Shown: one piece after another, positions 37,186-64,000 of the stretch | How positions within the stretch are numbered: position 1 is the first letter of the stretch | How the letters are laid out: each line of letters begins with the position of its first letter | Source: Escherichia coli | GTDB lineage: Bacteria; Pseudomonadota; Gammaproteobacteria; Enterobacterales; Enterobacteriaceae | Assembly: GCF_003334405.1 (NCBI RefSeq) | Contig: NZ_QOWM01000012.1 | DNA: 64,000 bases | Reading direction: 5' to 3' (one strand) | Program-made: the position numbers and the translations under genes | Notes under the pieces: model-generated | What the model was told of the DNA's origin: nothing | The model's input: only the letters and a program-made list of their open reading frames with translations | Databases searched by the model: none

Positions 37186-38109
37186 TTAACGCGTTCGCTG
37201 CGAAAGCACCTGCTGCTTATCCAGCTTTTGCACCAGCGGCTGCACCACTTTATCCCCATGCTGACCAAAGTATTGATACAGCGTATCGGACGCACTTTTG
37301 GTCAGCACCATAATCTCAATGCGCCGGTTGCCCGCGCTTTGCGGATTTTTGGAATCCAGCAGCATCTGGTCCGCCATTGCGCTTACCTGCATCACTTTAT
37401 CTTCCGGCATTCCGGCCTCTTCCAGCACCCGACGAGCCGAAAGCGCGCGGTCACCCGAAAGGTTCCAGTTGTTGTAGATATTGTTTTTGTAGGCCATCGC
37501 ATCGGTATGCCCGGTAATAATAATTTTATTATCGAGCGAGTCGAACACTGGCGCGAGCTCCACCAGCAGCGTTTTAAAGAACGGCATAATCTTCGCGCTG
37601 CCGCGTTCAAACATATTGCGGTTCTGGTCGTCTTTAATCAGCACGCGTAATCCCTGGGGAACAATCTCCATCTCCAGATTCGCTTCCATATGCGCATCAC
37701 GGGCAATGGTGTTGATACTGGTTGCCAGCTCACCAAGCTCGGTGGCGGATTTCTTCTTCAGCAGCGCCGTTTTCTCATTCACATCACGCGCTTTTTTCTC
37801 CGTCTCTTCCGGCACCGCCACGGTGGCAGGTTTTGGCGGATGAGACGGGCTGATTTTATTTAACGGCGACAGCCCACCACCGTTAAAAATCGACTGCCCG
37901 TGCAGCGCGGCGATAATGCTTTCACGCTCGGATTTACTGACGCTGTTGACAATCCACAGCGTCATAAACAGCGCCATCATTGCCAAAGTAAAGTCGGCGA
38001 ACGCCACCTTCCACGCCCCGCCGTGGTGCCCGGCATGATTCTTTTTGATCTGCCGCCGGACGATGGTGGTTTTTGCCCCACGATCGCGGCGGTTACCCGT
38101 CTTTCTCAT
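37186..38109 (-). CDS. lafU: Lateral flagellar stator protein, MotB-like
   Basis: OmpA-like C-terminal domain (NRRIEIMV); the ORF track extends to 38142, probable start MRKTGN at ~38109. Confidence 0.8.
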   Translation of the reverse strand: MRKTGNRRDRGAKTTIVRRQIKKNHAGHHGGAWKVAFADFTLAMMALFMTLWIVNSVSKSERESIIAALHGQSIFNGGGLSPLNKISPSHPPKPATVAVPEETEKKARDVNEKTALLKKKSATELGELATSINTIARDAHMEANLEMEIVPQGLRVLIKDDQNRNMFERGSAKIMPFFKTLLVELAPVFDSLDNKIIITGHTDAMAYKNNIYNNWNLSGDRALSARRVLEEAGMPEDKVMQVSAMADQMLLDSKNPQSAGNRRIEIMVLTKSASDTLYQYFGQHGDKVVQPLVQKLDKQQVLSQRTR

Positions 38110-38111
38110 GC

Positions 38112-38975
38112 TTATTCTTGCTCCAGCATCGCATTCACCCACGCGTCGAGGTTGGCGAAGGTCGGTTTGGACGCCAGATGCAGTAGCTTACGCCCGGCGT
38201 CCACCGCCAGCAGCGTCGGTTTGCCGCCTGCCTGCGCCACCAGCACGGTACGCACGCATTCCAGCAAAGAATGTTCTGCCCGCGCCTGTTGTTCCATGGC
38301 GTTGGCGAGTGGGTCCATCAGGCAGTAGCAGATAAAGACGCCTAAAAATGTCCCCACCAGCGCTGCCGCCACTTTCAGGCCAATCAGGGCGATAGAGCCG
38401 TCAATCGACTGCATGGTGATGATGATGCCCAACACCGCCGCACAAATGCCAAACCCCGGCATCGCTTCGGCGGTACGTTGCAGCGAGCGCGACGGCGTTA
38501 GCAGCGACTCTTCCGCGGTGTCCAGTTCCTGATCGAGAATGCCTTCCAGTTCATGGGCGTCGATTTTACCCATCGCCATCAGGCGAAAGTTATCGGCAAT
38601 AAAGGTCACCAGCCGCTTCTGGGTTAACACCAGCGGGTATTTCTGGAAAATGGTGCTCTCTTCCGGTTGCTCAATATGTTGATCCAGCATGCGCAGACCA
38701 CCGTTTTGCACCATTTCGAGTAACTCATACAGGCACATTAATAGCTGGCGCTGAAACTCCGGCCCGAGCTGTTTTTTACTGATTACGCCTTTAATTTGAT
38801 GGGCAATCTCTTTCAGCACATGTTTCGGGTTACCAATAATCATCGCCCCGAAACCGGCACCCAAAATAATGATCATTTCCGCCGGTTGCCAGATAGCCAC
38901 TAATTGCCCGCCCGCTTCAAAATAACCGCCAAATACGCAGCCGAGCACCACCAGTAAACCTAATATTTTTTGCAT
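38112..38975 (-). CDS. lafT: Lateral flagellar stator protein, MotA-like
   Basis: 287-aa polytopic membrane ORF with MotA/TolQ/ExbB-like sequence. Confidence 0.85.
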   Translation of the reverse strand: MQKILGLLVVLGCVFGGYFEAGGQLVAIWQPAEMIIILGAGFGAMIIGNPKHVLKEIAHQIKGVISKKQLGPEFQRQLLMCLYELLEMVQNGGLRMLDQHIEQPEESTIFQKYPLVLTQKRLVTFIADNFRLMAMGKIDAHELEGILDQELDTAEESLLTPSRSLQRTAEAMPGFGICAAVLGIIITMQSIDGSIALIGLKVAAALVGTFLGVFICYCLMDPLANAMEQQARAEHSLLECVRTVLVAQAGGKPTLLAVDAGRKLLHLASKPTFANLDAWVNAMLEQE

Positions 38976-38987
38976 GATTTCTTCACT

Positions 38988-39704
38988 TTAATTCGGATAG
39001 ACAAAATCACGAATTTTCTGCGCGATCTGTTTATTCAGTTGACAAATTCGGGCCTCGGTTAGCCCTAATACCAGCGCAATCTCTTTGAGATTCATCTCAT
39101 GCTGGTAATACATGGAGAGGATCAGTTGCTCTTTTTCGCTTAATTGTGAAAGCGCCTGTTGCAGCATTTGCTGGGTGACAAACTGATCTTCCAGCTCCCT
39201 GCCAGCAAGCAGAATGCCAGGCCCTTCGCCGTTCAGCAGTTCGTCCAGGCTGGCGAGCGTTTCCGCCCCTTCCAGTTGCTGATATTCGAGATAATCTTCA
39301 TGCGAGATCCCTTCCACGGCCAGTTCTGACCACTCCGGTTCGTGCCCCAGTTTTTTGCGCGTTTCGCGAATCAGATCTTTCATCTGATGATATTTCTGTC
39401 GCAGCTGGCGCGGTCGCCAGTCGAGAGCGCGCAGCTCATCCAGGATCGCGCCGCGAATACGGTGCACGGCATAGCCCGCAAAACCTTCGTCCGGCAGCCC
39501 GTAGCGACGGATGGCATTAAGCAGCCCCATTAACGCCGTTTGTTCCATATCCTGACGATCAATAATGCAATTACACTGCGGGGCAAGTTGCCGCACCACT
39601 TTACGCACCAACGGTAAATAGGCCTGCAAGTAGTGGCTCTCCTGCTGCGGGGTTAATACCGGCGCGGCAGCAAATTCTTCCGACTCGAATACATCCTGTA
39701 GCAT
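38988..39704 (-). CDS. lafS: Lateral flagellar sigma factor (FliA/sigma-28 family)
   Basis: 238-aa ORF with sigma-70 regions 2 and 4 (LVRKVVRQL..., LSEKEQLILSMYYQHEMNLKEIALVLGLTEARICQL). Confidence 0.85.
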   Translation of the reverse strand: MLQDVFESEEFAAAPVLTPQQESHYLQAYLPLVRKVVRQLAPQCNCIIDRQDMEQTALMGLLNAIRRYGLPDEGFAGYAVHRIRGAILDELRALDWRPRQLRQKYHQMKDLIRETRKKLGHEPEWSELAVEGISHEDYLEYQQLEGAETLASLDELLNGEGPGILLAGRELEDQFVTQQMLQQALSQLSEKEQLILSMYYQHEMNLKEIALVLGLTEARICQLNKQIAQKIRDFVYPN

Positions 39705-39723
39705 ATTTATATCCGCCTGGTGA

Positions 39724-40191
39724 TTACTGGAAGACCACTTTTTTCACCAGCAAATCCTTATACGGTGCGCTCATTTTGCGACGCTGAAGATCTTTCTTTA
39801 ACGCGTCAGAAATGAGTTTGCGGATGGCGGATATTTTCATGCCACGCAAATCTTCAAATTTCATTTCCGTCAGGCATTCAACCGCAATACTTTGATACAG
39901 CGGCTCCTGATGTTTTATTTTTTCCGCTTCTTTGTCACTGGCGACCACCATCACTAATTCCGCCGACAAATAATGGTCCGCGCCGTTGTTGTCATGCAGC
40001 GTGACAATGGTTTCCGGCAACGTCACAAACACGCTTTTGCTTTCATCCAGGGTTTCCACCGTTTCCGTCTGCGCGGCGGCAGTCGGTTTTCCTTTTCCGG
40101 CATAATGATGCCAGACACCCCATCCAGCTCCGGCCCCCACCACCAACGCCAGAACGGCGCTGACCACGCCCGCCACCACGATTTTCTTCAT
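39724..40191 (-). CDS. lafF: FliL-like basal-body-associated protein
   Basis: 155-aa ORF with one N-terminal TM helix, FliL-like. Confidence 0.7.
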   Translation of the reverse strand: MKKIVVAGVVSAVLALVVGAGAGWGVWHHYAGKGKPTAAAQTETVETLDESKSVFVTLPETIVTLHDNNGADHYLSAELVMVVASDKEAEKIKHQEPLYQSIAVECLTEMKFEDLRGMKISAIRKLISDALKKDLQRRKMSAPYKDLLVKKVVFQ

Positions 40192-40198
40192 ATTGCCT

Positions 40199-41260
40199 TT
40201 ACACTTTGATCAAAACGGATTCGTTCTGTTGAAATTGAGGCGCATCATCAAGCTGTAAGGCGGCACTCACCTCTTCCTGCTGATGGCCCGACTGTTGTTG
40301 TTGCTGCGACTGCCCTTCGGAGGAGACCTGTACGTTCACCTCCATAAAATTTTGCGCCGTCAGATGCTGGCGGAGATCGTCGCTAAACTGCTGTAACGCG
40401 CGGCAAACTTCACTTTGGTTCGCGCCGATGTGCACCATCAGTTTGCCGTTGTCGAGTTGTACGGCGATCTCGAGCTTGCCAAGCGACGGTGGATCGAGAC
40501 GGATGGTGGAGATCTGCTGTTGTTTGTTGAGCTGAAAGTGGATCTGATCTTTCAAAAGCGTCGTCAGTTTTTCGCCCAGTTCGTCCATCGAAAGCGTGGC
40601 TGGTTTGGCGACAATCTCCTGATGCTCGCTGAGCAGCTCCGGCGTCTTAACCTGCAACACCGCACGCGCAATAACCGGTTCGCTGTCCGGCACTTTTTCC
40701 GTTTTACGCTCGACCTGCGGGCGCGCGGTCACACGGGTTAGTTCAGGTTTTGGGCGAGCTGGCTGTGTTGAAACGCGCGGCTGCGTCGGCGCAATGGCAT
40801 GTAAATCTTCACTGGCGTAAGTCGCCAGTCTGGCCTGCTGTTCGGGCTTCGCCTGTGGCAACTGACTGATCAGTTCCTGCAACTGCGGCGGCAACGGCGT
40901 GAGTTCCTGCTGTTGCGTCTGGCGTTGCGGCGCGTTTTGCACCACCGCTTTCGTCAATTGCTGGATAACCGGCGATGTTGCGACGTTTCGCGGCTGCGGC
41001 GTGTGCTGATGCGGCGCGGCAGGTTGTGGAAGTAACAGCGCCATTAGCGCCTGCATCGCCACCGGATCGTTCTCCTGCGGGCGCGTCGCCTGTTGCTGAC
41101 TGGTTTTAGCGCTATGAACGCGCTCCGCCACCGCCGCGACCGCCATTTTCGGCAGGGTAAACGCGGGCGCGTTTTCACCGCTCACCGGCGGTAAAATATC
41201 CGCCTTCAACGAAGCGGTTTCCGCAAGCGTTCCGAGCGTGGCAAGCAATGCCGGATTCAT
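40199..41260 (-). CDS. lafE: Hook-length control protein, FliK-like
   Basis: 353-aa Pro/Gln-rich ORF with a FliK-like C-terminal domain. Confidence 0.7.
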   Translation of the reverse strand: MNPALLATLGTLAETASLKADILPPVSGENAPAFTLPKMAVAAVAERVHSAKTSQQQATRPQENDPVAMQALMALLLPQPAAPHQHTPQPRNVATSPVIQQLTKAVVQNAPQRQTQQQELTPLPPQLQELISQLPQAKPEQQARLATYASEDLHAIAPTQPRVSTQPARPKPELTRVTARPQVERKTEKVPDSEPVIARAVLQVKTPELLSEHQEIVAKPATLSMDELGEKLTTLLKDQIHFQLNKQQQISTIRLDPPSLGKLEIAVQLDNGKLMVHIGANQSEVCRALQQFSDDLRQHLTAQNFMEVNVQVSSEGQSQQQQQSGHQQEEVSAALQLDDAPQFQQNESVLIKV

Positions 41261-41568
41261 GACTTCTCCGAAAGTAAATTAACAATTGAGTAGGCGAGCA
41301 CACCTTCCTGATGCCGCTGATGCTGTTCCATACGCGCCTTCAACACTTCTGCGCGCTGCTCGCGCCGTTTAATCAGGGCATTAAACGCGCCGTACAAATG
41401 CGCCTTTACCGCACAGAACTGCGCCGCGTCGGTTTCCGCCGCCGCGTAATCGTGAAACTGGCGCATCAACTGCTGATGCAGTGCCGGAAGGCGTCGCCAG
41501 CGTTGCTTGTCGAGGGCTTCATTCATCGCCTCGACCAGTGCGAAAAGTTGCCTGCGTTGTTTTTCCAT
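41257..41568 (-). CDS. lafD: FliT-like export chaperone
   Basis: 103-aa helical ORF downstream of the fliS homolog. Confidence 0.55.
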   Translation of the reverse strand: MEKQRRQLFALVEAMNEALDKQRWRRLPALHQQLMRQFHDYAAAETDAAQFCAVKAHLYGAFNALIKRREQRAEVLKARMEQHQRHQEGVLAYSIVNLLSEKS

Positions 41569-41572
41569 CGTC

Positions 41573-41965
41573 TTAACCCAGCTTGCCCGAAAGCCCTTCC
41601 CAGCCTTCGCGCAGGTTGCTTAAGATCAGCATCACTTCATCGATTTTCTCTGCCGATAATTCGCCGCTGGCCTCATACAATCGGTAAACGCAGTGGTCAT
41701 AGAGTCGCGAAAGGTTGACCACCAGCTCACCGCCGGTTTCAAACTCCAGCGAACTGGTAAGCGCATTGAGAATGTCGATGCATTTATTGATGCTCTGGGC
41801 TTTCTTCTCGAAACGCCGCCCTTCAATATGGCTTTTGGCGCGTTCCAGCTCGTCCATCAGGCCAGAAAACAGCACCAGCACCAGTTCCAGAGGCGATGCC
41901 GCCGCAGTACGCGCCGCGAGATCGATCTCTTTATATTGTGAATAGCCGTCCTGTACTTGGTACAT
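41573..41965 (-). CDS. lafC: Flagellin chaperone, FliS-like
   Basis: 130-aa ORF with FliS-like sequence. Confidence 0.8.
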   Translation of the reverse strand: MYQVQDGYSQYKEIDLAARTAAASPLELVLVLFSGLMDELERAKSHIEGRRFEKKAQSINKCIDILNALTSSLEFETGGELVVNLSRLYDHCVYRLYEASGELSAEKIDEVMLILSNLREGWEGLSGKLG

Positions 41966-41987
41966 CTTTAGGGATATTCCTTCTGAG

Positions 41988-43304
41988 TTACGCGAATGCC
42001 GCCATGCTGGCTTTCATGGTGTACACCTCGACCAGCGTGTTGGTGTACTCCTCGAGATAACGGTCGTAGTTGGCGTTATAGGTATCGGTAAGCTGATCGC
42101 CTTCGTCCTGAATTTTGCTCATCTGATCGTCAATGTTCTGCTGGCGCAGGGTGATGATGCCGTTGCTGGAGTCCGTGTAGGTGTTAATCAGGTCGTCCAT
42201 CTGCGCCACCATGCTGTTGTCGCCAACGAAAATAGAGGTCAGACCGTCAGGATTTTTCGCCATTTCGTCGTTGAACTGGTCGGAGTCAATCTGTAAGTGG
42301 CCGTGAGAATCAAGCGTGATGCCATAGTCAACAATCGACACGCCGTTGTAGTTGGCATGGGCGATGTCATCGAGCTGGTTCGCCAGTGAATTGAGTCCGG
42401 CGTCGCCTGCAAATACCCCGGCGCTGGTACTGTCATCACCATGAGTAGTCAGTGAATCAACCGTATCAATCAAGGTGTTATAGGCATCGACAAAGGTCTG
42501 TACTTTCTCCTGACTGGCGCTGGAATCTTCGCTGATGTTAAAGGTAGTGAGATCGCTGTCAGAATCGCTGACTTCGGTGAAAGTCATGGTGACGCCGGGG
42601 ATCACATCATCAAATGTATTGCTGCTGTTGGTGATCTCAGGCCCTGTGGCGCTACCGAGATGAATAATCGCGTCCTGAGCGGAGGAAACATCCGTGGCAA
42701 CGGGCGCGCTGGCGCTATCGTTGCTGGCATCATGCCCCGTTACGCTCACCGAAAACGCGCTCTGCGCCCCGGTGCTATCCGAGGTGAGCATAATCGTGGT
42801 GGTGCCGTCGGTTTTTACCAGCGCAGCCGACACGCCCGGATTGTCATCGGAGTCGTTAATCGCATTCACCAGTTCACTGGCGTCGATAAAACCGTCGCCG
42901 TCACCGTTCTGATCCGCCGCCGCCAGATCAATATCCATGGTGCTGTCGCCCATGGTCATTTCGAACGTCCCCGTCGCAGAAAAGGTGTCATCACCCATAC
43001 TGAACGTGGTCTGCTGCCCCTGCGCCAGTTGTTCAACGAAAAACGAGTAGCTTCCCGCCTGCGCCTGCGAGTTAGCGGAAACGGTCGCCGAGTCATTATT
43101 GCTGGTGGCAGCGAAGGTCACCGGGCCGTCGGTATCGCTGTTTAGCGCATCCACGGCGCTCTGGAAATCGCTCAACGCCGAGCTGAGCGAGTCCAGGCCG
43201 CTGCTTTCGGCATCCAGCTCCGTTTGCTTCTCCTGCAAGTTTGCCGCCTGAGTGGCGACATCTGCATAAGCGATTTCTTGCGCAATGGTTCTTGGGTTGA
43301 TCAT
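41988..43304 (-). CDS. lafB: Filament cap protein, FliD-like
   Basis: 438-aa ORF with FliD-like N- and C-terminal coiled-coil regions. Confidence 0.8.
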   Translation of the reverse strand: MINPRTIAQEIAYADVATQAANLQEKQTELDAESSGLDSLSSALSDFQSAVDALNSDTDGPVTFAATSNNDSATVSANSQAQAGSYSFFVEQLAQGQQTTFSMGDDTFSATGTFEMTMGDSTMDIDLAAADQNGDGDGFIDASELVNAINDSDDNPGVSAALVKTDGTTTIMLTSDSTGAQSAFSVSVTGHDASNDSASAPVATDVSSAQDAIIHLGSATGPEITNSSNTFDDVIPGVTMTFTEVSDSDSDLTTFNISEDSSASQEKVQTFVDAYNTLIDTVDSLTTHGDDSTSAGVFAGDAGLNSLANQLDDIAHANYNGVSIVDYGITLDSHGHLQIDSDQFNDEMAKNPDGLTSIFVGDNSMVAQMDDLINTYTDSSNGIITLRQQNIDDQMSKIQDEGDQLTDTYNANYDRYLEEYTNTLVEVYTMKASMAAFA

Positions 43305-43484
43305 TGATGACTCCGGATAACGATGTCAGGTTATTGGCAAAAGGCGTGCCAATAATTTTTATGTGAATAATCAATAGATTGAAAAATGGGCGGAAAGGCC
43401 ATTTCCGGTCTGGTGGAAATACGCCTGCCGCAGAAAGAACAACACCGCCCGCAGGCGGTGTTGAGACTGATGACAAACGCAACA

Positions 43485-43590
43485 CTGCCTGATGCGCTGC
43501 GCTTATCAGGCCTACAAGGTTTCTGCAATATATTGAATTTGCAATATTTTGTAGGCCGGATAAGGCGTTCACGCCGCATCCGGCAAGTCC
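43485..43590. repeat. REP elements between lafB and lafA
   Basis: cctgatgcgctgcgcttatcaggcctac ... gtaggccggataaggcgttcacgccgcatccggcaag. Confidence 0.7.
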
Positions 43591-43594
43591 GCCA

Positions 43595-44509
43595 TTACTG
43601 CAGCAGGCTGGAAACCATGCTGGACATGCTGTTGGACTGTTTCAGCATGGTGATGCCGGTCTGCATCAGCACCTGCTGTTTGGTCATATTGGACGCTTCC
43701 GTAGCGTAGTCGGTATCCATGATGTTACCGATAGCAACTTCGGTGTTGTCCTGCATACTGGTCAGGTTATTAGCCGTGTCGTTCAGACGGTTGATAGACG
43801 CACCCAGCTTGGACTGGATCTGCGAAACATCATCCATCGCGGTAGAAATGCTGGTGATCATCTGGTTAGCCGAGCCAGACGCAGTCAGTTCAGTACCGCC
43901 AGAAACGCCTGCGGTGCCTGTGGTGTCTGCCTGATCCGCACTGAAGGAGTTGCTGATAGCAGAAAGGTCAGTCACCAGCGTGTTCAGTTGGCTAGAGATG
44001 TTCACGGTCATGGTGTCGGAAGATTCCGCGCCCACCTGGAAAGTTACCGCGCTCTGGAACAGGCCGTCAGTACCGGTGTTGCTGGTGCCGGAAACACCGA
44101 ACAGGTTGGTGCCGCCGTAGGTGGTGTTTTGCAGCATGTCAGACATCTGCTGGCCCAGTTCGTCGTATTCGTCCTGCATCGCCTGCAGATCGTCGTCGCT
44201 GTAGGTGCCGTTCGCTGCCTGAGTTGACAGGTCTTTCATACGACCCAGCACGTCAGACATTTCGTCGAACATGCTGTCGGCGGTTTGCAGCATCGCGGTG
44301 GCATCATTGATGTTGCTCAGCGCAACATCCATACCGCTGGACTGTGCTGTCAGACGGTTAGCAATTTGTTTGCCTGCGGCGTCATCGGCAGAAGAGTTAA
44401 TCCGGTTACCTGTCGCCAGGCGTTCCATAGATGTAGACAGAGAAGAGCTGCTTTTGCTGATTGCATTAACGGCGGCCATTGAGGCGTTATTGGTGTTAAT
44501 AGATAACAT
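43595..44509 (-). CDS. lafA: Lateral flagellin
   Basis: The ORF track starts at 44575; the conserved flagellin N-terminus MLSINTNNASMAAVNAISK begins at ~44509; conserved C-terminal D0 region. Confidence 0.85.
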   Translation of the reverse strand: MLSINTNNASMAAVNAISKSSSSLSTSMERLATGNRINSSADDAAGKQIANRLTAQSSGMDVALSNINDATAMLQTADSMFDEMSDVLGRMKDLSTQAANGTYSDDDLQAMQDEYDELGQQMSDMLQNTTYGGTNLFGVSGTSNTGTDGLFQSAVTFQVGAESSDTMTVNISSQLNTLVTDLSAISNSFSADQADTTGTAGVSGGTELTASGSANQMITSISTAMDDVSQIQSKLGASINRLNDTANNLTSMQDNTEVAIGNIMDTDYATEASNMTKQQVLMQTGITMLKQSNSMSSMVSSLLQ

Positions 44510-44943
44510 GATACTGCTCCTTGGGATTAATCGTTTTCGTTTCGATACCCTGTAAAAACGACACCTCGGGAGCAAACTTAAAACCGCCGTTAAAAAAATT
44601 TCACTGCGGTTTATCTGATGCCACTTTTAGCTAAAAAAAGCAGAGTTTAAATTCAGATAAAAAGATTATTAGCAATATCTGCCACATGGCCAGGTATCAA
44701 AATATGTCTTTATCAAACGCTTGATATAGTTAAGATTACCATCAATTAACGCGTTTTCTTCTCAATGTACTGATGCCAAAATTTACATTGCGTTGCAAAT
44801 AGTACACATTTGGCTATTGTACCTGTCCTGTCATTTCGTTACATTTCCACGCCATATAGTGATTAAGAATAATCCTATTACCATAAAATATTAATTATCA
44901 CGCAGAAAAATCATCTTCTCAGGGACGTATAAGACTGTGCTTT

Positions 44944-45837
44944 ATGCAAAGCACTATCAGGAAACATTTATCCCTTGCTAAGGTAAACTCAACTATGAGT
45001 ATTATTATCAACAACTGGCGGATGGACCCGTCGCTTAATGCCTTAATACATTGCGAAACGGGTGAAACACGTCGTCTCGGCGAATACCATTTTATTTTGC
45101 TGGAAACATTAGCAAAAAATGCCGATGTGGTTTTATCGCGATCTTATTTATGTGCCGAAGTATGGAAGAACCGCATTGTCGGCGGTAACAGCCTGCCGAC
45201 GGCGATACATGCATTACGCGTTGCTATCGACGATGATGGCAAACAACAGAACATTATTAAAACCATCCCGAAAAAAGGTTACCTGTGCAATAAAGAGTAT
45301 GTGTCTTTGCCGGAGTCATCGCCTGCGGAAGCGCTGATTATTACCAACCAGGTACAGGAAACTGTGCCAGGAGAGATATCTTCGACAACCCTGCCTGTGC
45401 CTGTTAGAAAAAAACATAAAGGACTGATGGGGTTAGCGTTGACCGCGGCTGTTATATTTATTGGCTCGACCGTGGGGTATTCACACTTGAAAAGTACACC
45501 TGACGCCCCGCAACTGGTAAAAGAGTCAATTAACAGCCCAAGAATAAAAATATTTCACCTTAGTTCTGGAAAAGAAAATAATTCCGCACCGTTACTGTCA
45601 CAAACCCTCGCACCAGGAAAAGACAAACTCGATAATTTATTGTCAGCGCATAATATGACAATGACAACCTATTATAAATATGTTCGTAACCGACTGGAGA
45701 GTGATATTGTTCTGCGCAACCAGTGCAACGGTAGCTGGCAATTAACCTTTAATGTGGATGAGTGGCAGAATAGCGATATTAATAGCGCGATGTATCAGAA
45801 TTTAGAGAAGTTGTTAAATACTGTGCAGAAGTGCTGA
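44944..45837 (+). CDS. lafZ: ToxR/CadC-like membrane-anchored transcriptional regulator
   Basis: N-terminal OmpR/PhoB-type winged helix, single TM helix GLMGLALTAAVIFIGSTVGY, periplasmic C-terminal domain; start may be MSIIINN at 44995. Confidence 0.7.
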   Translation: MQSTIRKHLSLAKVNSTMSIIINNWRMDPSLNALIHCETGETRRLGEYHFILLETLAKNADVVLSRSYLCAEVWKNRIVGGNSLPTAIHALRVAIDDDGKQQNIIKTIPKKGYLCNKEYVSLPESSPAEALIITNQVQETVPGEISSTTLPVPVRKKHKGLMGLALTAAVIFIGSTVGYSHLKSTPDAPQLVKESINSPRIKIFHLSSGKENNSAPLLSQTLAPGKDKLDNLLSAHNMTMTTYYKYVRNRLESDIVLRNQCNGSWQLTFNVDEWQNSDINSAMYQNLEKLLNTVQKC

Positions 45838-45844
45838 TGAGTGC

Positions 45845-55888: not shown

Positions 55889-55890
55889 GC

Positions 55891-56226
55891 TTATTTCCCT
55901 TCAATGGCCTCTCTGATGCCGCTGATTTGCAGATTCAGAAAGGTCAGACTGCTTTGATAATCCATACTATTTTGTGAAAACCGCGCCTGTTCGCTGTTCA
56001 GCTCCACGGTGTTGCCATCTTCCGACGGCTGCATCGGCACGCGGTACTGGACATCCACCGCCGCGTTATTTGCCCGTTGCATCTCCCTGGCAAAATCAAT
56101 ATCTTTAGCCTTGAAATTTGGCGTATCGACGTTCGCCAGATTCGCAGTCAGTAGCTCGGTCCTCTCAAGACGTAACTTCACTGCCTGCGGATGTACTCCC
56201 AATGCCTGTTGAAAACTGATCCCCAT
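55891..56226 (-). CDS. lfgB: Rod protein, FlgB-like
   Basis: The ORF track starts at 56256; an internal start MGISFQQALG at 56226 leaves room for a divergent promoter with lfgA. Confidence 0.8.
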   Translation of the reverse strand: MGISFQQALGVHPQAVKLRLERTELLTANLANVDTPNFKAKDIDFAREMQRANNAAVDVQYRVPMQPSEDGNTVELNSEQARFSQNSMDYQSSLTFLNLQISGIREAIEGK

Positions 56227-56307
56227 TTCCTGCGTCACTCCTGCTTCAATCCGCATACGCTAAGCAATCGCCGTGCCATTTTTTAAGTGACTGATGAGAA
56301 AGGGTTT

Positions 56308-57045
56308 ATGAGTTTTCAATTTTGCAGGCGGAAGTTTTATTTCCTCCTGGCGCTGGCCTTACCGGGCTACGCCGCCGTCCACCCCGTGCAGCACAGCGCG
56401 CGGGAACAAGTCAACGCCCAGGTGCTGAATGCCGCGAGCCAAAAAATTGAATCGCTGGCGCAACAGCGGCAGTGGCATGACTATCACTACACCTTTAAGG
56501 TCTACATTCCCTCGCAGATTGCGACCGCCGCGCCCTGTGCGACTACACCCGGCGTTACGCTCACTTCGCCTGCGGAAATCGCCCTCAACCGGATGAACTT
56601 CACCGTCAGTTGCCCGCAAAGCTGGCAGATGAACGTGGCGGTGCGCCCGGATGTGCTGGTGCCGGTGGTGATGACAAAGTCACTGGTTGCCCGCGATACG
56701 CCGCTCACGGCAAATGATGTGGAGTTGAAGCCCTACAACGTCAGCGCCCAGCGCAGGGAGGTGTTGATGGAACTCGATGACGCGATTGGTTTCAGCAGTA
56801 AACACGCGCTGCAACCAGGCAGGCCAATCACCAAAGAAGAGCTGGTGTCTCCGGTGCTGGTCGGGCGCGATCAGCCGGTGATGATTGTTTACCAGAGCGC
56901 GGGGATCACCGCCTCGATGCCCGGCGTGGCGCTGAAAAATGGTCGCAAAGGCGAGATGGTGAAAGTGCGTAACGCCAGCAGCCAGCGGGTCATCAGCGCG
57001 ATGGTGGCGGAAAGCGGCGTGGTGACAACGGTAAGCGCGGAGTAA
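56308..57045 (+). CDS. lfgA: P-ring assembly chaperone, FlgA-like
   Basis: The ORF track starts at a GTG at 56287; the ATG at 56308 has SD gagaaaggg and begins a signal peptide MSFQFCRRKFYFLLALALPGYAA. Confidence 0.75.
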   Translation: MSFQFCRRKFYFLLALALPGYAAVHPVQHSAREQVNAQVLNAASQKIESLAQQRQWHDYHYTFKVYIPSQIATAAPCATTPGVTLTSPAEIALNRMNFTVSCPQSWQMNVAVRPDVLVPVVMTKSLVARDTPLTANDVELKPYNVSAQRREVLMELDDAIGFSSKHALQPGRPITKEELVSPVLVGRDQPVMIVYQSAGITASMPGVALKNGRKGEMVKVRNASSQRVISAMVAESGVVTTVSAE

Positions 57046-57125
57046 TTTGCGCTGGCGATTAAAGTTTTGCCGCCTGTTAACCGCTTTACCGGAGTAACCC
57101 ACCCAAATACCGAGACGAGGTTGCG

Positions 57126-57404
57126 ATGAAAATCACCCCGACTATGCCAGGCAATCGCCCAACAACCACAACGGCAGGCTCCAGCCAGCCGCGCAAAACC
57201 ACGGCGACCACCACCACGACGCTGAGCGCCGACGACATTACTCAGGCGGGATTGCAGTCTGCCCAGCAAACGCTGAACGACCAGCAAGAGAGCGATATCG
57301 ACAGCAACAAAGTGGCGCAAGTGCAGGCGATGCTGGCGTCCGGCAGCCCGCAAGTGGACACTGAACAGTTAGCCAGCGACATGCTGAGTTTTTTCCAGAA
57401 CTAA
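57126..57404 (+). CDS. lfgM: Anti-sigma-28 factor, FlgM-like
   Basis: 92-aa ORF with Thr-rich disordered N-terminus and a conserved C-terminal region. Confidence 0.7.
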   Translation: MKITPTMPGNRPTTTTAGSSQPRKTTATTTTTLSADDITQAGLQSAQQTLNDQQESDIDSNKVAQVQAMLASGSPQVDTEQLASDMLSFFQN

Positions 57405-57416
57405 GAGGCCGATGAA

Positions 57417-57845
57417 GTGAGTATCCGGTTACAACAGGTGAAGGCGTTGTTGCAGGGAATTCGTGACGACGACGCGCTGTATGATTCCCTGCGCGAACGT
57501 CTCCAGCGCCAGCGGATCTGCATGATTCGCCGCGCCAGCGAGGAGTTGCTGGCGGTAAACGATGAGATTACGCATCACTATGAGCAGTTACACAGCCATA
57601 GCCATCAGCGGCATAGCCTGCTGAAAATGCTCGGTGTTAGCGTAAATCGTGACGGTCTGGCGCAGGTGTTTGCCTGGCTTCCGGCGGTACAAAAAGCGGC
57701 AGCACAACAATTGTGGCAACACCTTGAGCAAAAAGCGGAACGCTGCAAAGCCTACAACGATAAAAACGGCGAGTTGTTGATTCGCCAGTATGAATTTATT
57801 CAGTCGTTTTTAGGCAGCGAAGCAGATTTTCTGTATCAGGAATAA
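57417..57845 (+). CDS. lfgN: Export chaperone, FlgN-like
   Basis: 142-aa helical ORF immediately after the flgM homolog. Confidence 0.65.
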   Translation: MSIRLQQVKALLQGIRDDDALYDSLRERLQRQRICMIRRASEELLAVNDEITHHYEQLHSHSHQRHSLLKMLGVSVNRDGLAQVFAWLPAVQKAAAQQLWQHLEQKAERCKAYNDKNGELLIRQYEFIQSFLGSEADFLYQE

Positions 57846-57933: not shown

Positions 57934-58902
57934 TTGCACATCCTGCACAGCATTAAAGACTGGAAGCCACCTATGAGTTTTATTGAATGTTACGAACCGG
58001 AATACGTGCGCAATTTTATGACGCAATACCCCGGTTCGCCTTTATACGTCCGCAAGGTGTGGAAAAACGAGATTCGCCTGAGCCTGATGCTGACAGAGCC
58101 AGAAAGCTGCGAAGCGATGCTCAACGATGTCAGGGCCTTTGATTTACAGCTCACCTACCGTCCTGTGGAAGAAAATGCCGCAGAGCTTTCCGCGCGCGAT
58201 GCGATAGTAAACCAGGTGATTTTGAGTACCCTCACGCTCCGTGATTTAACACCAGAACTGTCATTGTATGCCGTCGGTATCCTGCTCTCCCGCGCCAGTA
58301 AAATGCCGGGCAGAGACGGAGATATTCTTGCCCGTTTGACGACGCTGCCGCAGGCGCTGGCCGATCATGCGAAAAAAGGCATCCTACAGGCACAGTTCGC
58401 CCAGCTGCCGCCCGTGCCACAGCTGGTGCGTCACCTGGCCACGTTACTCGGGAGTTTTACGTTTGACTGGTCGATTTTGCCGGAAAGCCCGCGCAAAACT
58501 TCGCTGCCGTTGCAGATGCCTTTGCTGACGCTGCATGACGCTAACAGCGAAGCCCTGTTACAACAGCAGCTTCAGACGCAGTGGCAAACCACCTGGCAAC
58601 AGCATTTTGCCACCGCGCCCTGGATGATGCGTAACTGGCTGATTTACCGCGTTTACCACGATGTGATTGGGCAGACTGACGGGGCGGATTATTTCCCGCT
58701 GGTGTGCGATTTTTATCTCCTCCGCACGTTAATCAGTTTATGGACGCTGGATGGTTCTTCGCTGCGGCAGGAGGATATTTTCGCCCTCTTTGCCATGTTT
58801 GAACGCTGGCGAGCCAGTGAAAATGCGCTGTTGGTTCGCCAGCAAATTCAGTCGTTATGTGCCGCCGACCCGCTGCTTTCAGCGTTTTCGCTGCTAACGT
58901 GA
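57934..58902 (+). CDS. Hypothetical protein embedded in Flag-2
   Basis: 322-aa ORF with no recognised motif; precedes the glycosyltransferase. Confidence 0.5.
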   Translation: MHILHSIKDWKPPMSFIECYEPEYVRNFMTQYPGSPLYVRKVWKNEIRLSLMLTEPESCEAMLNDVRAFDLQLTYRPVEENAAELSARDAIVNQVILSTLTLRDLTPELSLYAVGILLSRASKMPGRDGDILARLTTLPQALADHAKKGILQAQFAQLPPVPQLVRHLATLLGSFTFDWSILPESPRKTSLPLQMPLLTLHDANSEALLQQQLQTQWQTTWQQHFATAPWMMRNWLIYRVYHDVIGQTDGADYFPLVCDFYLLRTLISLWTLDGSSLRQEDIFALFAMFERWRASENALLVRQQIQSLCAADPLLSAFSLLT

Positions 58903-58904
58903 GT

Positions 58905-59045
58905 CGCTCTGTGCGCGCTTTGCCCCTCACCCTAACCCTCTCCCCAAAGGGGCGAGGGGACCGATCGAGCACAGTGTTAAAATCGGCGCTGATTTTCTCC
59001 CTCTCCCTGTGGGAGAGGGTTGGGGTGAGGGCATCAGCGCGCACA
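58905..59045. repeat. Long imperfect palindromic repeat element, distinct from REP
   Basis: gcccctcaccctaaccctctccccaaaggggcgagggg ... ctccctctccctgtgggagagggttggggtgagggc. Confidence 0.5.
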
Positions 59046-61525
59046 TTCATCACATTCACCCATTAACTCACCCAAACACCATGCCAACACCAACCATCAT
59101 CAAAACACTCAACACCCACCGCGAAAAACCGTTTGTCAGCGTCGTCACGCCAACCTGGAACCGCGGCGCATTCCTGCCGTACCTGCTCTATATGTACCGC
59201 TATCAGGATTACCCGGCAGACCGCCGCGAACTCATCATCCTCGACGATTCCCCACAAAGCCATCAACACATCATCGACCGCCTGACCAATGGCACGCCGG
59301 AAGCCTTTAACATCCGCTACATCCATCACCCGGAAAAACTGCCGCTGGGCAAAAAACGCAACATGCTCAACGAACTGGCGCGCGGCGAATACATCCTCTG
59401 CATGGACGATGACGACTACTACCCGGCAGATAAAATCTCTTACACCATCGCCATGATGCAAAAACACCGGGCGCTCATCTCCGGCTCCGATCAGATCCCC
59501 ATCTGGTACAGCCACATCAACCGCATCTTTCAAAGCCGCAGCTTTGGCCCGCATAACATCCTCAACGGCACCTTTTGCTATCACCGTAACTACCTGAAAA
59601 AGCACCGTTACGACGATGATTGCAATTTAGGCGAAGAGAAACGTTTCACCGACAATTTCAGCGTAAACCCGCTGCAACTGCCCGGCGAGCGCACGATTCT
59701 GTGTATCTCGCATAGTCAAAACACCTTTGATAAAGATTTTATTCTCGGGGCCAGCACGCCAGTAAACGCGGCGCTTACGGATATCGTCCGCGATCCGCTG
59801 CTGCGCAATGCTTATCTGAGTCTGCATAACGCCACTCATCACCAGGCGATCAACCATCAGGCGATCGATCAGATCGTTCTGCTGAATCTGGATAAACGCC
59901 CGGATCGCTTACAACAGATCCGTGAAGAACTGGCATTGCTGCATATTCCACCTGAGAAGATCACCCGCCTTGCCGCCAGTGAAGATGAAAACGGTCAACG
60001 GGGCCGCCGTCAGTCGCACTTACAGGCGCTGCGCCTGGCGCAACAGCACGGCTGGCAAAACTACCTGCTGCTGGAAGATGACGCGGTTATTCTCAAGCAG
60101 GAGAAACATATTCAGGTACTGAACACGCTGCTGGCGAGCCTGGCGAAAATTCCCTGGCAGGTGATGATCCTCGGTGGCGAAATTTCGCAGGGAACGATGC
60201 TAAAAAGTTTGCCGGGGCTGGTGCACGCGCGGGACTGCCGCAAAGTGTGCGCGTATCTGGTGAACAGCCGCTACTACCCGCAACTGGCGCAGCAGATGAG
60301 CAACGATGAGCACTCGCTGGAAGCCTGCTGGCAGCCGCTGCTACGCGCCGACAAATGGCTGGCCTGTTACCCGAGCCTTTGCTACCAGCGACCGGGTTTT
60401 AGTGATATCGAGAAAAAAACGACTGATAATATTGCTCACTATTTCAATAAGTTACCCGTAGCCACCAAGCCATCTACATTACCCATCGCCGATACCATCG
60501 GCTTTTTTATGGAAACCTCATTCCACTACACGCTGTACCGCCCAATCATCACCGCTCTACAGGCGCAGGGGCAGAGCTGCACACTAGTGATCAATGACCG
60601 CGTGTTTAAACCGTTTCTTGATGAGATGCTGGAAACACTGAAAAACATCGACGATCCGCAGCTTAAAGGTATGCGTCTGTCAGAAATGCAGACACATGGT
60701 CAGCGGGTGAAATGCCTGGTCAGCCCCTACCACACGCCTGCGCTCAATGGCCTGGCGGCGGTGAACATCCGCGCTATGTACGGCTTAGCCAAAGAGACGT
60801 GGAACCACGCCGACTGGAATCGTTTTTACCAAAGCATTTTGTGTTATAGCCACTACAGTCAGCAGGCGCTGGCGCATTTCGGCAGCGCAAAAGTGGTCGG
60901 CAACCCGCGCTTCGACGCCTGGCATAACGGCACGTTCGATCGCGCGTTGCCGGAAAACATCCAATCAGATTACCGTAAACCTACGGTGCTCTATGCCCCA
61001 ACGTTTAGCGCATTAAGCTCCCTGCCCCACTGGGCTGAAAAATTGGGCCGCTTGAGCGGTGATGTGAACCTGATTTGCAAACTGCACCATGGCACCTGCT
61101 CACGCCCGGAAGAAGCAGCATCGCTGGCCCTGGTGCGCAGGCATTTAAAACAGCGCACCGACTCCGCCCGCCACACGCTGGCGCTGCTGGCAAAAGCCGA
61201 TTACGTGCTGACCGATAACAGCGGGTTTATTTTCGATGCTATCCACGTTGATAAGCGGGTGATCCTGCTCGACTTTCCGGGCATGAATGATTTGCTCGAC
61301 GGTGAGAAAAGTTATTCCACGGCAGAGAGCGCCGACCAGCGAATCCGCGAAATATTGCCGGTTGCTCATGATGTTGCAGAACTGCGTTATTTGTTGTCAG
61401 AGGCGTTTGACTGGGGGTCGGTGCAGGCGCGGCTTACGGAGATTCGCCATCACTATTGCGATGCGTTTATGGATGGCAAGGCGGGAGAACGGGCGGCGAT
61501 TGTGATTGTGGAGGCGCTGGGGTAA
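59009..61525 (+). CDS. Multidomain glycosyltransferase: N-terminal GT2-like, central GT25-like, C-terminal TagF-like CDP-glycerol glycerophosphotransferase
   Basis: 838-aa ORF; VSVVTPTWNR...ILDDS and CMDDDDYY (GT-A DxD motifs); LLNLDKRPDR (GT25-like); VLYAPTF and YVLTDNSGFIFDAIH (TagF-like). Likely start MPTPTII at ~59081. Confidence 0.75.
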   Translation: MGEGWGEGISAHIHHIHPLTHPNTMPTPTIIKTLNTHREKPFVSVVTPTWNRGAFLPYLLYMYRYQDYPADRRELIILDDSPQSHQHIIDRLTNGTPEAFNIRYIHHPEKLPLGKKRNMLNELARGEYILCMDDDDYYPADKISYTIAMMQKHRALISGSDQIPIWYSHINRIFQSRSFGPHNILNGTFCYHRNYLKKHRYDDDCNLGEEKRFTDNFSVNPLQLPGERTILCISHSQNTFDKDFILGASTPVNAALTDIVRDPLLRNAYLSLHNATHHQAINHQAIDQIVLLNLDKRPDRLQQIREELALLHIPPEKITRLAASEDENGQRGRRQSHLQALRLAQQHGWQNYLLLEDDAVILKQEKHIQVLNTLLASLAKIPWQVMILGGEISQGTMLKSLPGLVHARDCRKVCAYLVNSRYYPQLAQQMSNDEHSLEACWQPLLRADKWLACYPSLCYQRPGFSDIEKKTTDNIAHYFNKLPVATKPSTLPIADTIGFFMETSFHYTLYRPIITALQAQGQSCTLVINDRVFKPFLDEMLETLKNIDDPQLKGMRLSEMQTHGQRVKCLVSPYHTPALNGLAAVNIRAMYGLAKETWNHADWNRFYQSILCYSHYSQQALAHFGSAKVVGNPRFDAWHNGTFDRALPENIQSDYRKPTVLYAPTFSALSSLPHWAEKLGRLSGDVNLICKLHHGTCSRPEEAASLALVRRHLKQRTDSARHTLALLAKADYVLTDNSGFIFDAIHVDKRVILLDFPGMNDLLDGEKSYSTAESADQRIREILPVAHDVAELRYLLSEAFDWGSVQARLTEIRHHYCDAFMDGKAGERAAIVIVEALG

Positions 61526-61534
61526 ACCGCGCAA

Positions 61535-61620
<86 letters not shown>

Positions 61621-61642
61621 AATACATCTCTGTTTTAGTACT

Positions 61643-62038
61643 TTATAAAAGCCCTCTAATCACCTCAATAATCCCCGTCGTCGACACCGACGGCGTGCGG
61701 GGGAAATAGACCACCTCACAAATATACGCAAAGCTGTCAAACTTCCCTGCCCAGTCATCCCCCATCACTAAAATATCCGCACTGTACCCGCGCAAATACT
61801 CCGCTTTTTGCTCCAGCGACTCTTCCAGAAATACGCCATCCACGCACGCCAGCCCGGCGATGATCGCCATGCGGTCATCCTGATGGTAAACCGGTGCCCT
61901 GCCCTTTTTGGCGATGTTCAGGGCGTCGGACGATACGCCGACCAGCAGCCGCTCGCCCAATGCGCGGGCGCGTTGTAAAAGGCGCAGATGACCGACATGA
62001 AACACATCGAAGGTGCCGAAGGTGATGACCGTTTTCAT
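61643..62038 (-). CDS. Glycerol-3-phosphate cytidylyltransferase (TagD-like)
   Basis: MKTVITFGTFDVFHVGHLRLL (HxGH motif) and VMGDDWAGKF...VVYFPRTPSVSTTGII match TagD; the ORF track extends to 62176, which would overlap lfiJ. Confidence 0.8.
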   Translation of the reverse strand: MKTVITFGTFDVFHVGHLRLLQRARALGERLLVGVSSDALNIAKKGRAPVYHQDDRMAIIAGLACVDGVFLEESLEQKAEYLRGYSADILVMGDDWAGKFDSFAYICEVVYFPRTPSVSTTGIIEVIRGLL

Positions 62039-62040
62039 GG

Positions 62041-62502
62041 CTACTCCGCTAATTTGTGCCGCAGCCAGCACTGCACGGCGATGTCGTCCACCGCTTTTTG
62101 CGCTTTCGCCGTGGCGCTTTCTTGTTGCTCGCGGCGTTTGTCGTCCAGCGTCAGGGCGACTACTTTCTCTTCGCACGCCGCCGCCGTGAGGTTTTTCTGC
62201 ATTCGCGTGGCTTTGATATTGGCCAGCGTTTTTTCCTGCTCCTGCCAGGCGATTACCTTGCGCAGGGTGCCTTTGTAGCCGCTGACGTTTTTCAGCGATT
62301 CCACCGACACCGCCGCACCCGCAGATGTTTTCTCGACAAGGTAGCCTAACGCCTTGATATTGTTGTCATAACCCGCGCAAATCTGTTTTTGCTTTGCCAG
62401 CTCGACGGTTTTGTCTTTGACCGATTTATCCCGCAGGCGCTGCAACTGCGCCAGGGTGTCGATGATTTGTCGCATAGTTACTGTTCTGCCTTTTTGGCAC
62501 AA
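62041..62502 (-). CDS. lfiJ: Export apparatus protein, FliJ-like
   Basis: Coiled-coil ORF directly downstream of the fliI homolog; start may be the internal M at ~62475. Confidence 0.7.
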   Translation of the reverse strand: MCQKGRTVTMRQIIDTLAQLQRLRDKSVKDKTVELAKQKQICAGYDNNIKALGYLVEKTSAGAAVSVESLKNVSGYKGTLRKVIAWQEQEKTLANIKATRMQKNLTAAACEEKVVALTLDDKRREQQESATAKAQKAVDDIAVQCWLRHKLAE

Positions 62503-63815
62503 GGAAAGAGGATTTGCAGGCGGCTTTGCACCAGTTCGAGGGAGGCGGGTTCGCGCATCTCCTGGCGCAAAAATCGCTCAATGGCCGGAAACATTTTCAC
62601 CGCTTTGTCGACGCTGGCGTCGGCACCTGCCACATAGCCGCCGAGCGGGATCAGAGGTTTGATCTCCATATAGGCGGCATAGTTTTGCTTTAACGCGCGG
62701 GCGGATTGCTGATGTTCCAGGCTGGTGACCTGGTTCATGCAGCGGCTGATCGACTGGCCGATATCAATGGCCGGATAGTGCCCCGCTTCCGCCAGTTTGC
62801 GGGTTAATACGATATGCCCGTCCAGCACCGCGCGCGCGCAGTCGACAATCGGATCTTGCTGGTCGTCACCTTCCGCCAGCACGGTGTAGATGGCGGTCAT
62901 CGATCCCGCGCTTTCGCTGTTGCCTGCGCTTTCGACCAGTTTGGGGATCATGCCGAATGCCGATGGCGGATAACCTTTGGTGGCGGGCGGTTCGCCGAGC
63001 GAGAGGGCGATTTCCCGCTGCGCCATCGCGTAGCGGGTCAGGGAATCCACCAGCAGTAAGACGTGATGCCCGCGGTCGCGAAACCAGGCGGCGATGGAGT
63101 GGCACAGTTCGGTGGCTTTCAGACGCATCAGCGGCGATTCATCGGCAGGCGCGACGACGACGATAGACTTTGCCAGCCCGTCCGCGCCCAGCGAGTGGTC
63201 GATAAACTCTTTCACTTCGCGCCCGCGTTCCCCAATCAGCCCAACCACCACGATATCGGCTTTGGTCTGGCGGGTGATCATCCCCAGCAGCACGCTTTTC
63301 CCGACGCCGCTGCCTGCCATTAGTCCGACGCGCTGGCCTTTGCCGATGGTCAGCAGGCCGTTGATCGCTTTCACGCCCACGTCCAGCGGTTCGTCTACCG
63401 AACGACGAGTTAAGGGATTAACCGAGGGCGGCAACGGCGGCAGAAGGTCGTTGCCGTTCAGGCGGCCTTTGCCATCCAGCGGTTCGCCGAGGCCATTCAC
63501 CACGCGGCCTAACCAGCTTTCGCCTATCAGGATGTCGTGGGCTTTTTCTTCCGGGAAGACGCGTGCGCCTGCCATCAGGCCGACCGGCTGTTTAAACGGC
63601 ATTAAATAGGTGATGTCGCGATTAAAGCCCACGGCCTGCGCGTCGATCAGCGTGTGATTGGCACTTTCGATGCGGCACAGCTGCCCGGTCATTAGCGGGC
63701 AGCCGACACTCTCCAGCAGGATGCCGTTAAGGCGCACCAGCCGCCCGGCGACGCGGGCCAGCGGGATCGACTCCAGCGAGCGCAGGGCGTTATCGAACGC
63801 AGAAAAATCACTCAC
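62478..63815 (-). CDS. lfiI: Flagellar export ATPase, FliI-like
   Basis: 445-aa ORF with Walker A GSGVGKS and F1-ATPase-like fold; GTG start. Confidence 0.9.
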   Translation of the reverse strand: MSDFSAFDNALRSLESIPLARVAGRLVRLNGILLESVGCPLMTGQLCRIESANHTLIDAQAVGFNRDITYLMPFKQPVGLMAGARVFPEEKAHDILIGESWLGRVVNGLGEPLDGKGRLNGNDLLPPLPPSVNPLTRRSVDEPLDVGVKAINGLLTIGKGQRVGLMAGSGVGKSVLLGMITRQTKADIVVVGLIGERGREVKEFIDHSLGADGLAKSIVVVAPADESPLMRLKATELCHSIAAWFRDRGHHVLLLVDSLTRYAMAQREIALSLGEPPATKGYPPSAFGMIPKLVESAGNSESAGSMTAIYTVLAEGDDQQDPIVDCARAVLDGHIVLTRKLAEAGHYPAIDIGQSISRCMNQVTSLEHQQSARALKQNYAAYMEIKPLIPLGGYVAGADASVDKAVKMFPAIERFLRQEMREPASLELVQSRLQILFPCAKKAEQ

Positions 63816-64000
63816 CCTGCGACTCCGGCGTGAGTGTTTCTTTCAGCGCGGTCATGCATTGTTCAAGGCGATGCTCGCAGCCGATATCCAGTTCGGATTT
63901 GTCGGTGATCACCCGGCATTCGCCCGGTGGCAGATCCGGCGAAGGCGTCAGCCCCCATTCGCTGACCTTTTCCGGCACCGCGTCGCGCAGGCGGTTAAAC
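63809..64000 (-). CDS. lfiH: FliH-like export component, partial (N-terminus beyond the window end)
   Basis: Open minus-strand frame ending ...LEQCMTALKETLTPESQGE with its stop overlapping the fliI homolog start. Confidence 0.5.

Follow-up and report, generated by a model that had tools for sequence, protein, structure and literature searches.

The window analyzed here, a 64,000-nucleotide stretch of Escherichia coli chromosomal DNA (contig NZ_QOWM01000012.1), very probably carries, from position 37186 to its end, about two thirds of the known E. coli Flag-2 locus, with a regulatory cascade of the lateral type as its most likely way of working. Flag-2, a set of genes encoding a second flagellum of the lateral type, is sited on the chromosome between dinB and the rayT/yafL region, and the assignment of 37186-64000 to it is essentially certain. 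The locus is already known, and the copy in the window is not a noteworthy new member. Flag-2 is said to have been described, from the locus of strain 042, by Ren et al. in 2005 (J Bacteriol 187:1430). It has also been surveyed across Enterobacterales (De Maayer et al., 2020; PMC6993521).

Between positions 37186 and 63815, the window holds 30 uninterrupted open reading frames (ORFs), whose lengths and coordinates equal those of the PGAP models of strains FORC_081, AH21, and C1, and the last 64 codons of lfiH form further Flag-2 content at the window end. The dinB gene (36060-37115) lies 70 bases from lafU, and the genes follow one another as they do in strain 042, the reference for the locus, and in the published Flag-2 cluster architecture (PMC6993521). 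Cluster 3 (lafW, Z, A, B, C, D, E, F, S, T, and U) is represented by all 11 of its genes, open and in order (37186-46873), and cluster 2 (lfgN, M, and A-L) by all 14 of its genes, likewise open (46890-57845). VR1, between lfiJ and lfgN, holds lafV, a GT2 glycosyltransferase gene, and tagD, the expected flagellin-modification set, and the share of cluster 1 within the window comprises only lfiJ, lfiI, and the 64 codons of lfiH. Matches above the curated NCBIfam cut-offs were obtained for LafU, MotA-type LafT, sigma-28 LafS, FliS, LafA, FlgL, FlgK, FlgI, FlgH, FlgG, FlgF, FlgE, FlgC, FlgB, FlgA, FlgM, FliJ, and FliI, and clear matches under the cut-offs for FliL, FliD, FlgD, and FlgJ. An initial annotation of the window had placed Flag-2 next to dinB, with its own sigma-28, anti-sigma factor, stator, hook, rod, and flagellin, and gene order, family assignments, and the distance to dinB bear this out. 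It had also listed the rings; this holds for the L and P rings (LfgH and LfgI), the only ones encoded inside the window, and not for the MS and C rings, whose genes lie outside it.

Gene content and extent of the locus

The window by itself cannot establish a full or complete system, because the genes for the MS ring, the C ring, the export gate, and LafK are located past position 64000. In FORC_081, AH21, and C1, the complete genomes closest to the window, ~11 kb more of Flag-2 follow the equivalent position, comprising the rest of lfiH, lfiG, lfiF (MS ring), lfiE, lafK (master sigma-54 activator), lfiM and lfiN (C ring), lfiP, lfiQ, lfiR, and lfhB with lfhA (export gate). The lfhA end, adjoining rayT/yafL, is seen in these relatives, and the window shows the dinB/lafU end. 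The exact LfgG, LafV, and GT2 protein sequences of the window occur on only six public contigs, and two of these same-clone contigs were examined (GCA_002190105.1, identical to the window over 58943-64000, and GCA_024592625.1). On both, nine genes (lfiH, G, F, and E, lafK, and lfiM, N, P, and Q) are open, and LafK has the Sigma54_activat and HTH_8 domains; its exact protein sequence is very common. The initial description of a full set with intact-looking ORFs thus stands for the 30 full-length ORFs and is not confirmed for the ~11 kb of the cluster beyond 64000.

The genes of cluster 3 are listed below, with bit scores against the family cut-off.

37186-38109, minus strand: lafU, MotB-like stator subunit with an OmpA-like peptidoglycan-binding domain (NF005273, 578.6 bits against 383; length equal to the PGAP model)
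38112-38975, minus strand: lafT, MotA-type stator subunit (TIGR03818, 375.5 against 303.8)
38988-39704, minus strand: lafS, sigma-28 (FliA/WhiG) factor dedicated to Flag-2 (NF009091, 447.4 against 339)
39724-40191, minus strand: lafF, FliL-like (FliL families under cut-off; named FliL by PGAP)
40199-41260, minus strand: lafE, hook-length control, FliK-like (weak YscP-type match; named FliK by PGAP)
within 41257-43304, minus strand: lafD, 103 residues (no family match; named FliT in one record)
41573-41965, minus strand: lafC, FliS chaperone (TIGR00208, 79.2 against 53.75)
41988-43304, minus strand: lafB, FliD filament cap (FliD families, E = 2e-44)
43595-44509, minus strand: lafA, lateral flagellin of 304 residues without a hypervariable middle domain (NF033376 lat_flg_LafA_1, 667.8 against 440, full length 1-304)
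44995-45837, plus strand: lafZ, ToxR/CadC-like membrane-anchored winged-helix regulator (Pfam Trans_reg_C, residues 25-97, E = 3.6e-13)
45896-46873, minus strand: lafW, Flag-2-specific and proposed to be hook-associated (name from PMC6993521)

LafZ has one hydrophobic segment (residues 143-161), and its gene lies in a patch of low G+C content (~41%). LafW has no NCBIfam or Pfam family match.

Cluster 2 includes the following genes and one pair of repeat units.

46890-47819, minus strand: lfgL, hook-filament junction protein (TIGR02550, 196.2 against 127.2)
47834-49210, minus strand: lfgK, hook-filament junction protein (TIGR02492, 347 against 170.75)
49292-49501: two REP/BIME-type units, 118 bases apart, in the lfgK-lfgJ spacer inside the lfgB-L operon
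49514-49813, minus strand: lfgJ, rod-binding domain only, 99 residues (TIGR02541 FlgJ, profile positions 21-91 of 294 only)
49813-50913, minus strand: lfgI, P ring (NF003676 FlgI, 450.6 against 300)
50928-51593, minus strand: lfgH, L ring (NF009072 FlgH, 433.1 against 323)
51797-52582, minus strand: lfgG, distal rod (TIGR02488, 348.6 against 252.75)
52661-53398, minus strand: lfgF, rod protein (NF009280, 314.7 against 210)
53398-54600, minus strand: lfgE, hook protein (NF005286, 534.4 against 467)
within 54744-56226, minus strand: lfgD, hook cap (FlgD family match under cut-off)
55457-55888, minus strand: lfgC, rod protein, intact (NCBIfam above cut-off)
55891-56226, minus strand: lfgB, rod protein (NCBIfam above cut-off)
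within 56308-57845, plus strand: lfgA, P-ring chaperone (TIGR03170, 115.7 against 54.65)
57126-57404, plus strand: lfgM, anti-sigma-28 (TIGR03824 FlgM, 45.5 against 40.75)
57417-57845, plus strand: lfgN, chaperone (FlgN by PGAP and Pfam PF05130)

LfgJ has 93-99 residues across all loci examined. In AH21 and many other strains, the lfgK-lfgJ spacer is 118 bases (one unit) longer than in the window. REP/BIME-type elements also occur in other spacers of the lfgB-L operon (51594-51796, 52583-52660, and 54601-54743), the REP content of several spacers varies between lineages, and the rayT gene flanks the locus in relatives.

VR1 and the start of cluster 1 contain the remaining genes.

57973-58902, plus strand: lafV, FliB-like lysine N-methylase (NF038110, 42.6 bits, under the cut-off of 85; PF27117 FliB_C)
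59081-61525, plus strand: GT2 glycosyltransferase, 814 residues (PF00535, E = 2.4e-17)
61643-62038, minus strand: tagD-like cytidylyltransferase (TIGR01518, 115.1 bits, under the cut-off of 165.4)
62041-62475, minus strand: lfiJ (TIGR02473, 59.4 against 50.45)
62478-63815, minus strand: lfiI, export ATPase, 445 residues, open (NF005535, 772 against 715)
63808-64000, minus strand: lfiH 3′ end, last 64 codons, cut by the window end (PGAP models of relatives)

A Pfam search of LafV returned no match. The C-terminus of the GT2 protein has a weak match to CDP-glycerol glycerophosphotransferases (PF04464, E = 0.009). The lafV-GT2-tagD arrangement in VR1 (57973-62038) has been described (PMC6993521), and this match, together with the TagD-like neighbor, fits the published idea of flagellin modification with glycerol phosphate (PMC6993521); GT2 and TagD may carry out a modification of this type. 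VR1 is variable: FORC_028 has IS621 between the GT2 gene and tagD, and AB_24_S34 and ST131 have two or three extra hypothetical genes.

Selection and intactness among E. coli genomes

Over 24 kb of coding sequence, the ratio of nonsynonymous to synonymous substitution rates (dN/dS) of 30 Flag-2 genes is 0.060, 0.068, and 0.070 against strains 042, AB_24_S34, and ST131, respectively, at synonymous distances (dS) of 0.18-0.22, and that of flanking housekeeping genes in the same comparisons is 0.036-0.048. LafA differs by one residue (dN 0.0014 at dS 0.15-0.17), lafW has a dN/dS of 0.06-0.09, and lafT one of 0.01 or less. This purifying selection between lineages clearly indicates that the proteins encoded by Flag-2 have been useful to the species during its history. 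The possibility of a decaying pseudogene across the whole locus is rejected for its deep history by the same between-lineage ratios.

The closest complete genome, FORC_081 (NZ_CP029057.1), matches 37186-62000 over its full length and has 15 differences over 25186-64000. Within the tight clade of the window, FORC_081, AH21, and C1, there are 22 variable sites, comprising 16 nonsynonymous changes (one of them a nonsense change in lfiI of FORC_081), four synonymous changes, and two intergenic ones. This pattern could be a recent relaxation of selection, or the general lag of purifying selection among close strains, and the flanks of the locus have too few clade changes to separate the two. Changes private to the window are LfgG T115I, LafV A152V, and GT2 H213Q and G643S; these are not read errors, since the same alleles are found in six public assemblies.

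The lfgF-lfgE genes are present in about a quarter of complete E. coli genomes (1277/5426), and at least 80% of 37186-62000 is found in 837. The remaining genomes have only ~770 bases of lafU and flhA fragments, the K-12 state, in agreement with the initial remark that K-12-like strains keep fragments (PMC3032704, PMC6993521). Ten complete genomes, selected on their similarity rank irrespective of lesions (in two, the locus was cut short within cluster 1), were sampled for intactness, and in the part fetched, seven of the ten loci have no annotated Flag-2 pseudogene. Lesions are a nonsense change in FORC_081 (lfiI Q45 to TAG, where the window has CAG), a frameshift of lfgC in 042 (two gaps and five stop codons in the alignment), and stop codons in lafZ and lafV of enterotoxigenic E. 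coli (ETEC) 2011EL-1370-2. In further loci outside this sample, either lfiH or the GT2 gene is split. Because seven of ten sampled loci are free of annotated pseudogenes, an intact Flag-2 is the usual state among carriers, and lesions are single hits in differing genes. An intact locus, lfgC included, has in fact already been reported from E. coli W, Crooks, EC958, and the porcine extraintestinal pathogenic strain PCN033 (PMC3032704, PMC4637896, PMC4578781). The initial annotation identified the locus correctly and overstated both its completeness and the rarity of an intact copy, which the counts above do not make noteworthy.

The locus in the window and that of strain 042 (NC_017626.1, 284682-323159) share the site beside dinB, the order of all 30 window genes, 92-99% nucleotide identity per gene, and the lafV-GT2-tagD content of VR1. 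They differ in lfgC (frameshifted in 042, intact in the window), in the REP content of intergenic spacers, and in VR2 (between lafW and lafZ), which contains a RelE/HTH toxin-antitoxin pair in 042 and is an empty gap of 58 bases in the window. The loci of W, Crooks, EC958, and PCN033 resemble that of the window in their intact lfgC, a VR2 without toxin-antitoxin genes, and sigma-54 sites before lfgB and lafB, but they belong to other lineages (dS ~0.2 from the window), and the ST131 locus has extra VR1 genes.

Promoters, proposed cascade, and function

Exact sigma-54 -24/-12 sites (TGGCAC-N5-TTGC) occur twice in the 64 kb, against 0.39 expected by chance, and each immediately precedes a Flag-2 operon in the right orientation. 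These sites, a third with one mismatch, and three candidate sigma-28-type sites are as follows.

43337-43351, minus strand: exact sigma-54 site (TGGCAC-N5-TTGC), ending 32 bases upstream of the lafB start codon
56264-56278, minus strand: exact sigma-54 site (TGGCAC-N5-TTGC), ending 37 bases upstream of the lfgB start codon
57923-57937, plus strand: one-mismatch sigma-54-like site (CGGCAC-N5-TTGC, keeping GG and GC), ending 35 bases upstream of the lafV start
44555-44581, minus strand: candidate sigma-28-type promoter of lafA, TTAAGTTT-N11-GTCGTTTT (post-hoc motif)
49243-49270, minus strand: candidate sigma-28-type promoter of lfgK (post-hoc motif)
57060-57087, plus strand: candidate sigma-28-type promoter of lfgMN, TAAAGTTT-N12-ACCGCTTT (post-hoc motif)

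In BLAST-anchored alignments, the three sigma-54-type sites are invariant in four lineages (the window, 042, AB_24_S34, and ST131; dS ~0.2). Sites of this kind before lafB and lfgB were earlier reported in PCN033 (PMC4578781). A bipartite motif (T[TA]AAG-N14/15-RYCGYTTT) is found before the late genes lafA, lfgK, and lfgM and nowhere else in the window, and is conserved in the same four lineages; the three late-gene sites may represent sigma-28-type promoters. Scans of the window with sigma-70 and terminator consensus sequences gave no enrichment over shuffled sequence.

The laf systems of Vibrio parahaemolyticus and Aeromonas hydrophila are second flagellar sets with LafK (sigma-54) and LafS (sigma-28) as regulators, a short LafA flagellin, and LafT/LafU as stator. 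As far as these systems are covered by the citations in PMC3032704 and PMC6993521, the E. coli locus shares their short flagellin and stator and probably their LafK and LafS control, but swarming has been demonstrated for them and not for the E. coli locus. The motY and maf-5 genes are reported to be absent from E. coli Flag-2 (PMC3032704, PMC4637896), and neither is found in the window: genes have been assigned throughout 37186-64000, and intergenic gaps measure 485 bases at most, which leaves no room for motY or maf-5. Flag-2 of Plesiomonas shigelloides and Yersinia enterocolitica has an orthologous three-cluster architecture (PMC6993521), but differs in VR1 content and flagellin glycans, and in that expression or swarming is experimentally documented, to the extent that PMC4481668 and, through PMC11420993, Bresolin (2008) convey it.

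The proposed cascade is based on the Vibrio and Aeromonas laf systems and on the sites found in the window. In this model, LafK together with sigma-54 would switch on the -24/-12 promoters of lfgB-L (rod, hook, and L and P rings) and of lafB-U (cap, chaperones, hook-length control, FliL, LafS, and LafT/LafU), and probably also lafV and the glycosyltransferase gene. Upon completion of the hook-basal body, LfgM would be exported and LafS thereby freed to transcribe lafA, lfgMN, and lfgKL from the sigma-28-type promoters. LafA would probably be lysine-methylated by LafV and modified via the GT2/TagD pair, rotation would be driven by LafT/LafU, and LafZ, the ToxR-like membrane regulator, may relay an outside signal.

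In the published work cited, Flag-2 function in E. coli is not demonstrated (PMC3032704, PMC4637896), and the swarming of E. coli W could not be ascribed to Flag-2 (PMC3032704). The open ORFs, the between-lineage dN/dS, and the conserved sigma-54 promoters make plausible the initial suggestion of a strain capable of a second, regulated flagellar system; it is weakened in that the window omits a third of the cluster and the intact Flag-2 of EC958 yielded neither LafA protein nor motility (PMC4637896). The ability of this clone to assemble working Flag-2 flagella under some condition has somewhat less than an even chance, and a working, conditionally expressed lateral flagellum, with LafK or LafZ answering low temperature, viscosity, or surface contact, appears rather unlikely. 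If true, the latter would show Flag-2-driven motility in E. coli for the first time, and would account for the retention of a 38-kb locus under strong purifying selection by about a quarter of strains.

Several observations weigh against the model of a working Flag-2 system. The genes for the MS ring, C ring, export gate, and LafK are not within the window, and lfhB, lfhA, and the 3′ part of lfiR were seen open only in the close relatives FORC_081, AH21, and C1, not in the clone itself. In EC958 (ST131), with an intact Flag-2, there is no LafA protein and no Flag-2 motility at 28 or 37°C (PMC4637896). The clade changes correspond to a dN/dS (omega) of ~1.2, which fits neutrality and rejects values of 0.065 (P = 2e-9) and 0.3 (P = 0.006). 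LfgG T115I (window position 52239) falls inside a Y-T/S-R-D/N-G (YTRDG) motif that is kept also in LfgF and LfgE; threonine occupies position 115 in all six other loci compared, and serine or threonine is found there in solved FlgG chains. LfgJ has no muramidase domain, its TIGR02541 match being limited to the rod-binding part, unlike the two-domain FlgJ of enteric primary flagella, which joins this part to a C-terminal muramidase. Among the visible genes of the locus there is none for a peptidoglycan hydrolase, and given the LfgJ architecture the cell-wall-cutting enzyme for the rod must be supplied from elsewhere. Finally, a search with the E. coli FliA consensus (TAAAG-N14-16-GCCGATAA, mismatches allowed) gave nothing convincing before lafA, lfgK, or lfgM, and the late-gene motif was derived afterwards from its own three sites, so that it is circular as a statistic and serves as a lead only.

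Flag-2 may instead be open yet effectively dead or silent in this clone, a relic nearing loss, through missense changes such as LfgG T115I, a lesion outside the window, or permanent transcriptional silence; this comes close to an even chance. It is favored by the lack of expression in EC958 (PMC4637896), the loss of the locus from ~76% of complete E. coli genomes, the lfiI nonsense change in the closest complete genome, the lesions of 042 (lfgC), ETEC 2011EL-1370-2 (lafZ and lafV), and other loci (split lfiH or GT2), and the 16:4 ratio of nonsynonymous to synonymous clade changes, which is compatible with neutrality. It has to contend with a between-lineage dN/dS of 0.06-0.07 over 24 kb of coding sequence, near that of neighboring housekeeping genes, with promoter motifs that are invariant, and with seven of ten sampled loci having no pseudogene. 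Moreover, a high dN/dS is generally expected among very close bacterial strains, in which selection has not yet had time to act, and this counts against a relic. An apparatus kept mainly for a role other than motility (e.g., protein export, adhesion, or surface sensing) is improbable, although De Maayer et al. raised a role in secretion (PMC6993521), dedicated chemotaxis genes are missing from the locus, and no motility phenotype has come to light in E. coli in spite of strong selection. The filament set (LafA, LafB, LfgK, and LfgL) and both stator genes are strongly constrained, which is hard to explain without rotation, and Flag-2 drives swarming in Plesiomonas, according to PMC4481668 as cited in PMC6993521.

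For annotation, the locus carries little weight, as Flag-2 has been known since 2005 and was surveyed in 2020, and PGAP names it automatically. The biological puzzle is a costly 38-kb system, kept at a dN/dS of ~0.06 by about a quarter of E. coli, in which strains acquire single disabling hits. The intact copy in the window makes its host usable as a test strain, as are several hundred other sequenced strains, and it offers no special leverage.

Elsewhere in the window

A prophage occupies 1-25828, where it is inserted beside tRNA-Thr(CGT) (25843-25918); its integrase lies at 24665-25828, and it includes terminase, a fused protease-capsid gene, and tail fiber genes. Before ~22 kb, it lacks collinearity with the prophage that FORC_081 has at this site, and is therefore a mosaic or a different phage. 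Between its late-gene regulator and lysis genes, an ORF of 483 residues and low G+C content (~36%; 13976-15427, plus strand) has its best PADLOC match to HEC-04 (159 bits), with weaker ones to AriA, GajA, and other ATPase-type defense proteins, and is a candidate prophage-borne anti-phage defense gene.

Between the prophage and Flag-2, remnants of rtcB and prfH are found at 33811-34546, where prfH has lost its N-terminus and rtcB is reduced to ~200 bases; both genes are whole in 042, AB_24_S34, and ST131.

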